Shown here in pieces: positions 3,332-61,216 of a stretch of 64,000 bases of DNA. The translations under genes were made by a program, and so were the position numbers. The first letter of the stretch is position 1. Each line of letters starts with the position of its first letter. Below the pieces are notes generated by a model. It saw only the letters and a program-made list of their open reading frames with translations, was not told the DNA's origin and made no database searches. Source of the DNA: an uncultured virus (IMG/VR IMGVR_UViG_3300009500_000012) (lineage: Duplodnaviria > Heunggongvirae > Uroviricota > Caudoviricetes); the IMG/VR virus record IMGVR_UViG_3300009500_000012; one strand, written 5' to 3'.

Positions 3332-3714
3332 GACCAGATTATAGCAAGGTCTTTAAGTTATGTCAAACAACCACTACTGCAAATAGATTATTAATTTGTT
3401 GAACAATAAAGAATCTATCACCAGGTTCTATTTGTTCTTTAAGACAAAAGTTTAAAGATTCATCTAGAAGATTTCGATAGGTTATATGTTCTCCTTCTTC
3501 ATTGGTAACTCCATACCATTTATCTTTAATTCGAGAAGGAACCTTAGCAACTACCTTATGGTCCTTAAATGCTACTTGACCTAACTCGGGAGTTGTTGTG
3601 CGAGGGGTAACATGAAATACAGATTCAAAAATAGAATTGAACCAACCTGGATATTCATTCTCCTTTTTTTGAATCTTAGATTGAATTCTTTTTAATGTTC
3701 TTAGAGTTGAAAGT

Positions 3715-21499: not shown

Positions 21500-22063
21500 G
21501 GTTGCGGGCTCCTTTCGGCTGTGTGCGAAGAGTCTTTTAATTCAATAAAGCCTAGCCTCGCAGCCGCGTTGATAACAGATTTGACCTGTTCGATTGAAAC
21601 AAATTCTTCGTCGCTTTGACTCGCGCAATCGTGCGCGCATCCATTCCACGAATTTTCGTCTCCGCAATCGCAAGGAGGTGTCGAAGCTTGAGCATAAATA
21701 TTCGACCACCATGATGTGGTGCCGACCTCATTTCCCATTTAAATTTAACCTATACCTTTTTCATCAAGAATCGCCAAAATATCGTCGGCATATACTGCTT
21801 GTAAATTGCCAAGTTTGCGTGTTTGACTTGGATTGCACAGCGCCTTCACAGCCCCTATCTGCGCCTCAAGTCTGTCTCGGTCTGCTTCGAGAAGTGTCAT
21901 ATCCACAGATTGGGCTTCAAGGTCGGCTTGCGCCTTATTAATTGCCTTTAGAAGAATTGGTACATCGTAATGAATAAGTTGAGCGCCGGTTTGATTTGAA
22001 AAGCCAGCAAGTTTTACATACTCCAGGCGTTTTATAATTTCATCTAAACACTTGTCGTCAAAG

Positions 22064-56512: not shown

Positions 56513-57537
56513 ATTAGCATACCTCTATTTAGATTAATCCAAATAAAGAATATGCTATTAGTCAAATATTTTTAATACAAGCTCTCTAATATGTTTACAG
56601 GAAAGACAACCACCGTCTTGCCCGCCGCAAGTTTTATGTCCATCATCGTCATCTACATAATCGCCATAAAATCTTTTTACAAGGTTAGCTAATTTGACTA
56701 AAGCCTCATCAAAAGTAGGAGCGCCACAATCTAACTCCCAATCATGACTTCTATTTTCACGACAATACATTTCAGGATAAATTTCTGCTTGCCAATTTTC
56801 ACGATTGGCATTCAATTCTTCTTCCAAATCGCCATCATAGTGTGCAGGACCAAATTCTAGCCATACTTCCGTAAAAGTACGTTCTTCTTTGGGAGCATCA
56901 GTTGTGCCATGTTTGTTGACCAAAACATAATGCACAAATAAATCTCGTTCAATAGCATACCAAAACATGTGAGGGTCTTGATAAATATAAACATCGCCTG
57001 GTTTTTCAATAATATAAGGCTTTTGATAATCAGCAATATTTTCTTTTTTGACTAACGTGCGATAAGGCAAACGAAACTTTGGATGATTCCTTAAGAACCA
57101 CCATGCTTCATAAGGGAAGAGAATTTCGTCTTTTGCTTTTAATTTAGGAGGCTTTTTCTTATTACTCATATCTTCTTATGTAGGCTTTTGGGCCAGAAAT
57201 CTTTGGAAAATCGACCTTGCTTTTTCTTTATTTTAAGAATGTATTTAGAAGTATCAAAACATCCACATGAAGAAAGGTATGTATTAGGTATTGTATTATA
57301 CTTTCTACATTGTTCATAATGTTCCCCACCATTACGTAGAGGTAGCCATTCTTCTTTCAAAGAATCTTTCCACCTTACTAATCCAAGATGTAAGATGACT
57401 TGCTCACCATGAGAATCAAAAGAACAAGGACGAAAATCTTCATCAATTATTTCATATGCAGGTTTTTTAGCCTCCATAATGGAATTGCGAATATTTTGAA
57501 GTTCTTGTTCTTCCATATTATTCCTAAATTATTTAAT

Positions 57538-57622
57538 TGGCAGGGGAGGTGGGACTCGAACCCACGAAGCCCAAAGGCGACAGTTTTGGAGACTGTTGGA
57601 ATAGCCGCTATCCGACTCCCCT
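57538..57622 (-). tRNA. tRNA-Trp(CCA) with a long variable arm
   Basis: Loop CT-CCA-AA, A1-U72, G73, CCA end, extra hairpin GCC-TTTG-GGC. Confidence 0.85.
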
Positions 57623-58228: not shown

Positions 58229-58588
58229 TTAAACTGGTTCTTGTTCGGTTCTCATTTCGATTGGTGCAGTTTCAGGGTTGTATTTCCACAATTTAAATTT
58301 AGACAACACACTTCTTTTGTTTCTATTTGAGAGCGCCTCTGTACAAATTGAAGAATAACCCATATCATTGTCAGGTTCAAAGAACTTAGTAAATTTAATA
58401 TCATTTTCTGAAAGAAGTCTTTCTACATCAAAAAGTTCTTCTTCATCCTTGACACCAATCATTACTAAATTATAGTGAGGATTATCAGTAAATAAACGAC
58501 CTGCATCCAAGGCAGCATGAATTCCTTGCACCATCTGTTGGGCAAGAGAAATATCCTGTCGGATAAAAATATATGTATATGTTCCCAT
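58229..58588 (-). CDS. Divergent Pth2-like protein
   Basis: YIFIRQDIS..QQMVQGIHAA...FFEPD...SICT. Confidence 0.75.
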   Translation of the reverse strand: MGTYTYIFIRQDISLAQQMVQGIHAALDAGRLFTDNPHYNLVMIGVKDEEELFDVERLLSENDIKFTKFFEPDNDMGYSSICTEALSNRNKRSVLSKFKLWKYNPETAPIEMRTEQEPV

Positions 58589-58690
58589 TTTCTTTCTTTC
58601 ATTGAATAAGTGATAAAGTTTAACAATGAAAGAAATCAAGGAGGTCGTGAATGATTGTTCTATAACATTAAAAATTATTAAACTCCTTTA
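58589..58690 (-). promoter_or_regulatory. Leader mini-ORF M-L-amber-NNHS-RPP-stop plus occluding hairpin
   Basis: ATG TTA TAG AAC AAT CAT TCA CGA CCT CCT TGA (58668-58636); TTTCTTTCATTG/CAATGAAAGAAA stem. Confidence 0.65.
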
Positions 58691-60382
58691 TTAATAATCA
58701 GAAAAATTAACTTTGATTTTTTCAAGTTCCTCAATGCTCGGACATTCTTCTGGAAGAACATCACATTCATTTTCAGGACTTACTTTTAATAATTTACCAG
58801 TCTTTTTATCATGTAATTCGCTTACATTTGCATCACAACTTCCTGAACAGGAACAACCAGAAGAATAGCAATAGAATACTACCCCATCTTTATCAATTCC
58901 AATACCTGAATAGGAATGATTATTCCATCCATAATCTTCATTAGAAATTTCCTTAACAATGACTAATTTTTTATCATTGAAAGAACTTTCTGGAAGCGTT
59001 TGATAGTTTTTCTTAACGAATTTAAGTATGTTATTCATTTTTGTTTATTCTTGTAATTTCGATTATTAATGATAGACCAACTATATTTATTATGCTGAAA
59101 ATTCAATATATCTAATGTTCTAAAATCTATCTTAGGAAATATTTGAAAATTTCCATTTTCAAATTCTTCTTCAGTCGGTGTACCAAATATTGGTTTATCA
59201 TCTTTGTTTACCCAGCACAATCTATTACCATTGCTATCATGATTAAAAACAATATAACCTGGCTCTAAACCATGTCCACAACACGCGCTACTTACTCCTG
59301 GCAAAATACCTAGACAACCATCTGCGCCATCTTCAATACCGCAAAAACCATCAAATTTTTCTTGCTTTAGATGACAAAAAACACAAGTTCTATCACCTAA
59401 AATAGGACCAGAAAAACCATACTCTACAGGAGTTAAATCCTCACACCATACGTATTCGCCAAATCTTTTGCCTTTTACAGGCTTAATTTCAACATTTAAA
59501 TCTTTAGCGTTATGAGCGAAAACACCTCCGATAATTTCGGCATCTATATGTTTATGATTTTCGTCAAAACAAATCATTATGCGGATTTCTTTTCTACTAC
59601 TTTTTGCATTGCTGCTGCCAAAAGTTCTGCATTAACTTTATCTAACCCTTTACAAACCGATTGAGAACGCATTTCAAATTGTTCTTTTTCAAAATCATAA
59701 GATGCAGACCAGCCATGTTTGTCCGACCAATGTTCGAAGTTTTGTTCTTTTAATTTAAATTTAACTTCGCTTTGAAGCAATCTACAAAGGGAATAAACTT
59801 CTCTAAAAGTAAGAAGTCCTTTGCCTTTACCACTCTTAACCGGCAAAAATTTTTTTTCTTCAACATGGTAAAATAACGTCCATGTTTTTTGGTCCGCATT
59901 TGCGACAAAATAGGATGGCATTTCAGCCGGATATTTACGTGCTAGTGCTGCGAGTTTCACAATGCTCCTTAAAAAAATCTTCTGCTTCTTTTTCTAATTG
60001 CTCTTGCTTTTTTAGATACTTTGCATCCACCTCGAAAATAAATACCTTAGCACCATCACCTTCTAATTCAAGTTTGTAATTTCGTGCTTCATCATATGTC
60101 ATTTGTTCAGATTCGAGAGGTAACTCAGAATGACTACCATTTTTCCCGGTTGGTGGATAGATTTTAAGATAATACATTTGAGTTATCTTTCTTAGCAGGA
60201 GCAGAAATTCCACAACTTTTGCAAAAAATCCAAGGCCAATTCTCTGCTGCATATTTTCTTTGAACGCCAGCAATAGAATAAGTTCCCGTTTTTTGTATAG
60301 TTAAACGCATTTCAATTTCTAAAGTTTTATTACTACATTGAGGACAAGATGTTTCTTTAATATCCATAATATCCATTTATTA

Positions 60383-60453
60383 CGCCCTGCACAGGAATCG
60401 AACCCGTACCTCCCAGATTAGAACCTGTTATGCTCCCACTACACCAGCAAGGC
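60383..60453 (-). tRNA. Atypical tRNA, anticodon CTA (amber) or TCT (Arg)
   Basis: Good acceptor, D and T arms; anticodon arm CAGG-TTCTAA-TCTG; CCA not encoded. Confidence 0.6.
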
Positions 60454-60531
60454 ACTCCATAAACATCATATCATTCTGCTAATGATTAGTCAAACAGGAA
60501 GGCAGGACCAACCTACCTTCCTGTTTAAGTC

Positions 60532-60987
60532 TTACTTAATTAGTTGTTCTAACTCTTTAAGTTTTTGTTTAACTTTTTCTTTAACTTCTGGACGAAGCGT
60601 GATGACAAATTCAGGAAGTCTTGTAGGCTTTGCAGCATAGAAGGTTCCATAAATATCTTCATATTTTTCTCTTGAACTATATACAATATTATTTGTTAAA
60701 ATATAATAGTTGTATTTATTATCTTTGCTATAGGAAAAAGCATCTGATAATTCATTGATTGCTTTTTGCAATTTCCAGTATTTATTTCGACCTTGAGCCG
60801 CATATCCCTGAATTCTTTTTTCAGTTTGTAAGGGCTTCCAACATTTTAAAACATCTTTATCAGAAATAATTAACCATAAAAGATGATTCCATGAATGACC
60901 AGGAATTTTCTTTTCAAGATATTTCTTGATGGTTTTTTTGTTTTTAAGATATTCTTCTTTAGTAAGAGTATATTCTTTAATTTTCAT
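60532..60987 (-). CDS. Hypothetical protein under the second amber leader
   Basis: 151-aa ORF, GGAG SD. Confidence 0.7.
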   Translation of the reverse strand: MKIKEYTLTKEEYLKNKKTIKKYLEKKIPGHSWNHLLWLIISDKDVLKCWKPLQTEKRIQGYAAQGRNKYWKLQKAINELSDAFSYSKDNKYNYYILTNNIVYSSREKYEDIYGTFYAAKPTRLPEFVITLRPEVKEKVKQKLKELEQLIK

Positions 60988-61100
60988 TTAATTTCTCCAA
61001 TTTAAAATAATAAGTGTTAAAGTAGTAGTAACTTAGATTAATTTAAATTGGTTAATTAAGGAGGTCGATTAGCGGTCTACAACATTTATGATTGTCCTTA
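60988..61100 (-). promoter_or_regulatory. Leader mini-ORF M-L-amber-TAN-RPP-stop plus occluding hairpin
   Basis: TAAGGA SD; ATG TTG TAG ACC GCT AAT CGA CCT CCT TAA (61085-61056); CCAATTTAAA/TTTAAATTGG stem. Confidence 0.65.
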
Positions 61101-61104
61101 AAAT

Positions 61105-61194
61105 TGGCGGAAAATGTGAGAATCTAACTCACGAAAGGCTCATCACCTCCAGGCGTTTTCAAGACGCTTTCCTCGTACATGCCGGACATTTTCC
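61105..61194 (-). tRNA. tRNA-Ser(TGA)
   Basis: Loop CT-TGA-AA, long variable arm, GCCA end. Confidence 0.85.
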
Positions 61195-61216
61195 AAAATT
61201 TATTTTTTCTTTTTAT

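Follow-up and report, generated by a model that had tools for sequence, protein, structure and literature searches.

The release factor 2 gene prfB is autoregulated by an in-frame UGA codon placed early in the gene. Leader-peptide attenuation is known in its ermC, cat and secM-secA types, and the TnaC leader ends with a proline codon followed directly by a stop (Pro-stop). In recoded phages, in-frame stops have been proposed to serve as a timer for late and lysis genes (Borges et al., 10.1101/2021.08.26.457843), the PTH2 genes of jumbo phages have been proposed to free peptidyl-tRNA in ribosome rescue (Iyer et al. 2021, PMC7824862), and a genome note mentions suppressor tRNAs of large phages that have no known target (PMC9022506). 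The locus considered here lies in a 64,000-nt stretch of DNA from an uncultured virus of the Caudoviricetes (IMG/VR record IMGVR_UViG_3300009500_000012), referred to as the window, in which two miniature open reading frames (ORFs), leaders 1 and 2, are each interrupted by an early TAG codon, the gate, and precede a gene related to peptidyl-tRNA hydrolase (PTH2-like) and a gene for a 151-aa protein, respectively. Each leader is probably a sensor of nonsense suppression that turns on translation of the gene behind it. A readthrough switch of this kind had been suggested in a preliminary description of the window, and comparison with homologous loci now supports it through a conserved plan, a match between gate codon and tRNA anticodon, coding-like variation and predicted pairing of the downstream Shine–Dalgarno (SD) sequence. 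The window pair belongs to a widespread phage module that comprises a leader, a further gene designated geneX, the PTH2-like gene and a suppressor tRNA. The window has this module in two separate halves, each with a leader copy of its own.

Both leaders were found by direct reading exactly as they had been described (Table 1). Leader 1 opens with ATG TTA TAG, continues with AAC AAT CAT TCA and closes with CGA CCT CCT TGA, and leader 2 is composed of ATG TTG TAG, then ACC GCT AAT, then CGA CCT CCT TAA; all genes in this part of the window are on the minus strand. The SD-like sites and the spacings given for them, 14 nt for leader 1 and 9 nt for leader 2, were also confirmed, compared with 3–9 nt 5' of the ATG in the leaders of relatives, and the SD of leader 1 overlaps the 3' end of the upstream gene (stop codon 58693-58691). 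In both places, as in leader-peptide attenuators, the next gene is preceded by a short ORF that has an SD of its own. An Rfam scan of the leaders returned no family, and its 19-bit match to a small RNA (E 0.64) is noise. Two other readings of these letters were rejected: the reverse strand of the leader motif is a perfect SD (AAGGAGGT), behind which there is only a 4-codon frame or a frame antisense to a tRNA-like element, and interpretation of the blocks common to both leaders as sigma-70 or phage promoters was unsupported by a promoter scan.

The claimed hairpins of 10–12 bp, with a 3' arm over the start region of the next gene, are present behind both leaders. The 5' arm of hairpin 1 begins directly after the TGA of leader 1, and its 3' arm covers the -16 to -5 zone of the PTH2-like gene, ending 4 nt before the ATG at 58588; the predicted fold (ΔG -11.4, z -2.7) pairs 12 of the 12 bases in the SD window, which none of 100 shuffles equalled. 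Hairpin 2 overlaps with its 3' arm the GGAG ahead of the ATG at 60987, and its fold (ΔG -10.8, z -2.8) has 9 of the 12 bases in the SD window paired. Both hairpin loops contain ACTTTAWCACTTATT (58605-58619 and 61009-61023, minus strand), and the corresponding loop in the closest relative, locus L029, has AAACTTTGCAC.

The two leaders had been said to differ in DNA, which is not borne out, as they share three blocks: AATGTTRTAGA, CGACCTCCTTRATT and the hairpin-loop motif ACTTTAWCACTTATT. Since these blocks have no other exact copy in the window, leaders 1 and 2 are paralogous copies of one element, not independent inventions. Their TAG-to-CGA spacers differ by exactly one codon, so that the reading frame has been kept in both. 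The window itself extends a known record: positions 1-21643 are identical to the last 21.6 kb of IMG/VR record G001 (130,281 bp, rated 78% complete), which represents the same phage, ends at about window position 21,643 without reaching the leader region, and is lengthened by the window by about 42 kb, to at least 172.6 kb. In the other 108 kb of this phage, that is in G001, no exact copy of CGACCTCCTTRA, the only block searched there, was found.

The joined genome of 172,638 bp was used for a chance search with the pattern ATG, 1–3 codons, TAG, 2–8 codons and Pro-Pro-stop. The Pro-Pro-stop pattern was found in 3 of 95 TAG-gated mini-frames, namely leaders 1 and 2 and one antisense match at 57456, as against 0 of 187 TAA-gated and 0 of 94 TGA-gated frames (0/281 controls). 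The third frame, at 57456 on the plus strand, runs ATG CAG GTT TTT TAG and then CCT CCA TAA; it is taken as a chance match because it is antisense to the gene at 57166-57516. The same explanation, or that of decaying and functionless remnants of a duplicated stretch, might be extended to the leaders themselves, of which the genome holds only two copies with DNA blocks shared by descent. The excess of TAG-gated over control frames, the preservation of frame by the one-codon indel and the recurrence of the same plan in unrelated sequence in 32 of 35 clusters of relatives (see below) make this extremely unlikely.

Searches for DNA relatives of the leader region among named phages yielded tRNA matches only, and a scan of viral contigs for ATGTTRTAG...CGACCTCCTT gave five matches, all of them in coding regions or opposite-strand SD sequences and dismissed as chance. 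None of the sequencing runs listed for this DNA is of RNA. One further run (X2) is identical to the window. Another (X3) provided a related soil-metagenome contig that covers only leader 2 and its gene, with homology stopping at 61098, the 5' edge of the leader. This contig joins 58259 to 60542, and such an in-frame join would delete the PTH2-like gene, leader 1 and the tRNA gene; the join, represented by 30 letters at the contig end, may be an assembly artefact and was not relied on.

Conservation of the motif in homologous loci, which had been set beforehand as the test of the proposal, was assessed in loci with a gene for a relative of the PTH2-like protein, taken from IMG/VR and JGI metagenomes (46 plus one later locus, L070) and grouped at 95% identity into 35 clusters. 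The motif is conserved: an early in-frame stop is present in 32 of the 35 clusters, as the gate of a leader, as a stop at codons 3–7 or as a stop inside the gene, and the three ungated clusters (L035, L055 and L060) are all without upstream DNA. Leaders of the same plan written in other codons stand directly before the PTH2-like gene in L029, L001, L002, L044, L030 and L031. In L029, whose protein is 65% identical to that of the window, the leader reads MHT-stop-ATTRGP-stop, with Arg encoded by AGA and Pro by CCG in place of the CGA and CCT of the window, and thus Arg-x-Pro-stop is common to both despite the change of codons. The others are MTR-stop-INEPP-stop (L001), ML-stop-VHKQSP-stop (L031), MK-stop-VLNNSPP-stop with CCG CCG (L002, and L044 with a synonymous AAC to AAT change) and ML-stop-ITKPP-stop with CCG CCT (L030). 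In most of the other loci, the PTH2-like gene overlaps the upstream geneX at its stop codon and the leader stands before geneX. These operon leaders include MM-stop-(V/I)Y(F/L)(N/D)S(S/T)-stop in L003, L019, L020, L023, L043, L045, L056, L057 and L058 (of the MM-stop subfamily), the variant VFEDSS in L026, MQ-stop-VLNNGPP-stop and MK-stop-ILNNGPP-stop in L021 and L028, a gate followed by VRN(K/N)SPP-stop in L036, L038 and L053, IYNNSPP in L047, and MM-stop-VLNRSP-stop in L070. The proposed Pro-Pro-stop plan therefore holds for many relatives but not for the large subfamily that ends with Ser-Ser-stop instead.

The gate also occurs without a separate leader. In L022, L033, L039 and L054, TAG is one of codons 3–7 of the PTH2-like gene, which has a good SD in front of it. 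Among cultured phages, TAG is likewise at codons 3–7 in Serratia BF, Yersinia fHe-Yen9-04, Acinetobacter ME3 and Ralstonia RsoM2USA; the Klebsiella phage RaK2 is ungated. In BF, fHe-Yen9-04 and RsoM2USA the PTH2-like gene is unannotated, in the ME3 record the coding sequence begins after the TAG, and BF and ME3 both have an annotated suppressor or CTA tRNA. Moreover, TAG lies inside the PTH2-like domain in six clusters, at two recurrent alignment columns, and interruption by TAA or TGA was seen in none of the 47 PTH2-like copies. Two loci show unusual arrangements. At L039 (1630-1750) a tRNA(CUA) is followed by ATG TCG TAG, an in-frame terminator-like hairpin with a T-run and a second ATG TCG TAG that opens the PTH2-like gene; readthrough would take ribosomes through the terminator stem, which is a possible transcriptional version of the gate. 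In Stenotrophomonas phage RAS14 (L067, OP752703.1 88311-89096) the PTH2-like domain forms the C-terminal part of a longer ORF, and ATG AAA TAG stands in frame upstream of the annotated start.

The position of the gate bears on a link with peptidyl-tRNA drop-off that had been drawn in the preliminary description, for which the two-codon minigenes of phage lambda are the model. According to this explanation, ATG-NNN-TAG would release peptidyl-tRNA and so connect the leader with a need for peptidyl-tRNA hydrolase; in both window leaders the stop does follow two sense codons, and the gene behind leader 1 is the PTH2-like one. Across the family, however, the gate is found anywhere from codon 3 to codon 7 and the preceding codons are unconserved (L, K, M, TR, HT, KKL, RTSKL, KPFA), which leaves the link unsupported. 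Nor would drop-off account for the conserved frame and peptide after the gate or for the match between gate codon and anticodon, and the explanation is considered very unlikely.

A suppressor tRNA gene is present on the same strand in 26 of the 35 clusters, often 30–200 nt behind the PTH2-like gene, and the gate codon corresponds to the tRNA anticodon in 24 of the 24 clusters in which gate and tRNA can both be seen: 22 pairs of TAG and CUA, one of TGA and UCA (L050) and one of TAA and UUA (L059). Under random pairing, both rare types would match about once in 550 (hand calculation). The two key cases are good though imperfect, as the L050 contig begins inside the leader and a clear SD is missing from that of L059. 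The gate of L018 is TAA, with no tRNA visible in the DNA at hand. In L020, the slot taken by tRNA(CUA) in sister loci is occupied by a tRNA (3455-3528) that ARAGORN calls Arg(tct), with a 9-nt anticodon loop containing CUCUAAA, and which may be an expanded-loop variant of the suppressor.

In the window, the corresponding gene is the tRNA at 60382-60454. It scores 41.5 bits in Rfam (gathering score 29) and has two anticodon-stem mispairs in that match, and ARAGORN gives it a 6-nt anticodon loop and no identity, so that the stem is irregular with either a 6-nt loop or a 7-nt loop and two mispairs. It has U33, CUA and A37, can be aligned with the tRNA(CUA) genes that accompany PTH2-like genes at other loci, and is probably an amber suppressor of uncertain fitness. 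Its imperfect appearance gives some weight to an explanation in which the gate reports the activity of release factor 1 (RF1), the genes being turned on by near-cognate readthrough when host RF1 is depleted or blocked in infection. Because readthrough depends on the ratio of suppressor to RF1, the leader could not distinguish the two, and the explanations are compatible rather than exclusive. As the primary input, RF1 is nevertheless unlikely, since the gate becomes TGA beside a UCA tRNA and TAA beside a UUA tRNA, and RF1 does not read TGA.

Variation behind the gate resembles that of coding sequence, which had been named as a further check. Among the six codons following the gate in 12 aligned MM-stop leaders, minority letters fall on codon positions 1, 2 and 3 in the numbers 16, 4 and 20. 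Serine after the gate is encoded by AGT in L026 and by TCT in the other MM-stop leaders, leucine by CTT or TTA, and the peptide (V/I)LNN(S/G)PP is common to L002, L021 and L028 with differing codons for Val, Leu and Pro.

Pairing of the downstream SD was examined in 25 leaders, each folded singly, with its ATG and the next gene's start as the limits, by minimum free energy (MFE) prediction. In 24 of them, the zone between -15 and +16 relative to the leader stop pairs with 6 or more of the 12 bases in the SD window, compared with a mean of 4.9 and a maximum of 9 of the 25 leaders in 100 control sets with the upstream part shuffled; in the same number, an SD-hiding hairpin within reach of a ribosome translating the leader is predicted, as in attenuators. 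The masking helix is kept in the MM-stop subfamily, with 86% of cells paired against 51–73% when it is slid. An added role of RNA pairing, suggested from the anti-SD character of the leader motif, stands for many relatives, in which the last two leader codons (CCU CCU or UCU UCC) are the anti-SD strand (L019, L036, L038, L053 and L057); in the window leaders, most of the pairing falls to the strand behind the stop.

These observations might also be accommodated by a purely RNA-based element, a conserved SD-masking hairpin opened by a protein, temperature or a small RNA, with the mini-ORF as a by-product of the anti-SD sequence (CCUCCU giving Pro-Pro, UCUUCC giving Ser-Ser). Pairing of the last leader codons with the SD in the relatives just named is what it would predict, and the loop motif ACTTTAWCACTTATT, common to both window copies, is superfluous to the switch model. 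Nonetheless, Pro-Pro-stop is kept with CCG or CCA outside the pairing strand (L002, L044, L030, L021 and L028), and the three codons after the gate lie outside the helix and still vary mostly at third positions with V/I-Y-F/L retained. In 24 of 24 clusters, the first stop met behind the ATG is the codon that the suppressor reads, and members of this gene family also have the gate within the coding sequence, a place at which a leader hairpin plays no part. On balance, an element acting through RNA alone is quite improbable.

If the leaders do sense suppression, ribosomes would start at the leader ATG and meet TAG at codon 3. Where RF1 wins, the ribosome would leave 24–27 nt before the hairpin, and the binding site of the next gene would stay paired (OFF). 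The reach of a ribosome on mRNA is about 11–13 nt beyond the P-site codon; a ribosome stopped at the gate should thus be unable to open the helix, because the distance from the gate to the first paired base (24–27 nt in the window, about 15 nt in the MM-stop subfamily) exceeds that reach. Where a suppressor tRNA, either the CUA-type tRNA of the phage (60382-60454) or another, reads TAG, translation would continue for 6–7 more codons to the real stop of the leader, at which the ribosome, with its A site on the stop, would cover and unwind the abutting 5' arm and free the SD (ON). The slow Pro-Pro-stop ending possibly holds the ribosome at this distal stop. In this way, the PTH2-like enzyme and the 151-aa protein would be made in proportion to TAG suppression in the infected cell. 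The in-gene gates have the same polarity, as no suppression would mean no protein, and their product would likewise be proportional to suppression.

Several points weigh against this interpretation. The CUA-type tRNA of the window has a weak D stem in addition to its irregular anticodon stem and may be impaired, in which case the gates need another suppressor or stay shut. The 14-nt spacing between SD and ATG in leader 1 is far for a good start. The clusters are phylogenetically non-independent, many gates were read by eye from upstream sequence or found by in-frame regular expressions, and four of them are weak, namely L024, L027, L059 (no SD) and L050 (contig start within the leader). Covariation of the helix in the MM-stop subfamily is not significant, 85 of 500 shuffles being as good, and RNAalifold found no consensus structure for 12 leaders; the structural case therefore consists of the same architecture arising from different sequences, in single-sequence MFE folds of AT-rich RNA. 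Peptide-level stalling cannot be general, since Pro-Pro-stop is absent from the Ser-Ser subfamily. Finally, the X3 contig has 0 of its 23 differences inside leader 2, which says little because only about 1.3 would be expected there.

Table 1. Coordinates of the leaders, hairpins and neighbouring features in the window
Feature	Positions	Strand	Description and basis
SD of leader 2	61095..61099	-	AAGGA; 9 nt 5' of leader 2 ATG; direct reading
Leader ORF 2	61056..61085	-	M L TAG T A N R P P TAA; gate codon TAG 61079-61077
Hairpin 2	60997..61051	-	10-bp stem, 61051-61042 with 61006-60997, plus inner and outer pairs
151-aa gene	60532..60987	-	no family; behind leader 2; database and profile searches
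Candidate terminator	60494..60524	-	GC-rich hairpin then TTTG; behind 151-aa gene; direct reading, unlisted in consensus scan
Sigma-70-like promoter	60465..60493	-	TTGACT, 17 nt, TATGAT, with TG; ahead of CUA-type tRNA; promoter scan
tRNA gene	60382..60454	-	CUA in anticodon loop; ARAGORN '???'; Rfam tRNA
SD of leader 1	58683..58688	-	AAGGAG; 14 nt 5' of leader 1 ATG; direct reading
Leader ORF 1	58636..58668	-	M L TAG N N H S R P P TGA; gate codon TAG 58662-58660
Hairpin 1	58593..58635	-	perfect 12-bp stem, 58635-58624 with 58604-58593; 19-nt loop
PTH2-like gene	58229..58588	-	119 aa; behind leader 1; family profile and AlphaFold model

The label 'Pth2-like' attached earlier to the gene behind leader 1 is upheld by both its structure model and its family. 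Taken alone, the window protein gives no match in Pfam at E<=0.01 or among PDB sequences at E<=10. Of 44 family members, 36 hit PF01981 at E<=1 (best 6.2e-8), all of them under Pfam's own cut-off for the window protein; the family profile finds peptidyl-tRNA hydrolases in the PDB at E 6e-5 and 0.037. The AlphaFold model (pLDDT 94, pTM 0.86) has as its top Foldseek matches the PTH2 chains 2zv3, 3erj, 1q7s, 1wn2 and 1xty (probability 1.00, TM 0.55–0.73), and PTH2 chains make up 11 of the 13 among the matches listed at E<=0.001. According to this model, the gene encodes a protein with the PTH2 fold, with putative enzymatic activity. Tyr6, Arg10, His24 and Asp73 are invariant in the family, and the Gly-Lys stretch of the solved enzyme falls opposite a gap in the profile alignment. 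The family comprises 2,414 representatives at E<=0.001.

For geneX, no Pfam family, no Atlas lead and no relative in named phages were found; its model (pLDDT 87.6) is all-helical, with no fold match at E<=0.001. The 151-aa protein behind leader 2 has one known relative, at 90% identity, none in viral contigs and no Atlas lead, its own structure model is poor, and profile comparison with geneX was not significant (probability 0.5%, E 0.11).

Other tRNA genes and tRNA-like elements surround the leaders. A tRNA-Ser(GGA) gene with a promoter is found upstream of leader 2, as is a second, odd tRNA-like element (61108-61195, minus strand), which was missed by ARAGORN and by the Rfam gathering search and combines an acceptor stem of 7 bp with a T arm, a variable arm that is long, an anticodon loop of CUUGAAA with the Ser-like anticodon UGA, and a CCA end encoded in the DNA; its match to the tRNA-Sec model is weak, at 33.5 bits (cut-off 47). 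The tRNA-Trp(CCA) gene at 57538-57622 (minus strand) is, at 85 nt, long for its type and has its own sigma-70-like promoter (57662-57634), and L029 likewise has a tRNA-Trp gene downstream of the PTH2-like gene. Phage transfer-messenger RNA (tmRNA) genes, in L020 of the permuted type, lie about 2.4 kb upstream of the PTH2-like gene in L003, L020, L021 and L026. A conserved ATAAATA, which resembles the T4 late-promoter consensus, stands 30–39 nt (once 52 nt) before 13 of the 25 leaders, compared with 51 of 1,429 background windows, and is absent from the window leaders.

The phage uses the standard genetic code, and gating is not part of general recoding. Long-ORF cover under the standard code is 0.88–1.00 in the first 60 kb of the genome, to which reading TAG as sense adds nothing, and in the window 16 minus-strand ORFs of 80 aa or more terminate in TAG. 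Genome-wide TAG recoding, as in phages of the code-15 type, was not observed, other loci showed no TAG-specific gain, and other TAG-gated gene starts in the genome are not above background (TAG 2, TAA 9, TGA 3).

Several purposes of the module are possible. The PTH2-like enzyme could recycle peptidyl-tRNA when readthrough sends ribosomes to message ends, in connection with which the nearby tmRNA genes may be cited; the device might provide feedback on the suppressor itself; or, as the ATAAATA motifs could hint, it might act as a late switch. A more speculative proposal, regarded as possible though doubtful, is that the four parts of the module together make up a code-switch circuit that measures itself, in phages of the standard code, the enzyme acting on the suppressor's own aminoacyl- or peptidyl-tRNA. 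Such a circuit, if real, would be a homeostat, or a bistable late switch through translation-dependent transcription of the tRNA gene behind the operon, and would offer a regulatory stepping stone from a standard-code to a stop-codon-recoded phage.

Compared with the recoding described by Borges et al. (10.1101/2021.08.26.457843), the module is alike in that in-frame stops tie expression to a phage-encoded suppressor tRNA, but that recoding is genome-wide and concerns many late genes, whereas here a single small module with a dedicated leader and hairpin operates under the standard code; the words 'leader', 'peptidyl' and 'hydrolase' are absent from the portion of that article that was available. 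The phage PTH2 paper (PMC7824862) deals with the same enzyme family and, in its accessible part, mentions no suppressor tRNAs, in-frame TAG codons or leader. A full-text literature search, in which subscription journals were thinly covered, returned no description of the device. Many large phages carry suppressor tRNAs without a known target, and the module would give them their first dedicated one. The gate would also account for the missing annotation of a conserved PTH2-like gene in jumbo phages that have been cultured. More broadly, the module bears on how phages control and tolerate stop-codon readthrough and on how recoding could start, and a portable natural switch keyed to a suppressor could serve genetic-code-expansion work.

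The closest regulatory parallels are the two types of bacterial control mentioned at the outset. In common with prfB, the phage module uses an early in-frame stop as a gauge, the decoding of which would set the level of a translation-related protein. However, prfB itself escapes its stop by a +1 frameshift, senses release factor 2 and has no separate leader or hairpin, whereas the frame runs straight through the gate in all leaders and in-gene gates of the phages, where readthrough by a suppressor tRNA would take the place of the frameshift, a separate leader ORF with an SD-masking hairpin is often present and the product is PTH2-like. With the ermC, cat, secM-secA and TnaC leaders, the phage leaders share a short ORF with an SD, an SD-hiding hairpin opened by the position of the ribosome and, often, a Pro-stop ending. 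In those systems a drug, an amino acid or secretion is sensed through nascent-peptide stalling, whereas in the phage leaders the input would be readthrough of an early stop and the gate codon tracks the tRNA anticodon. As interpreted here, the element is leader-peptide control keyed to nonsense suppression, a new input for that class of switches.

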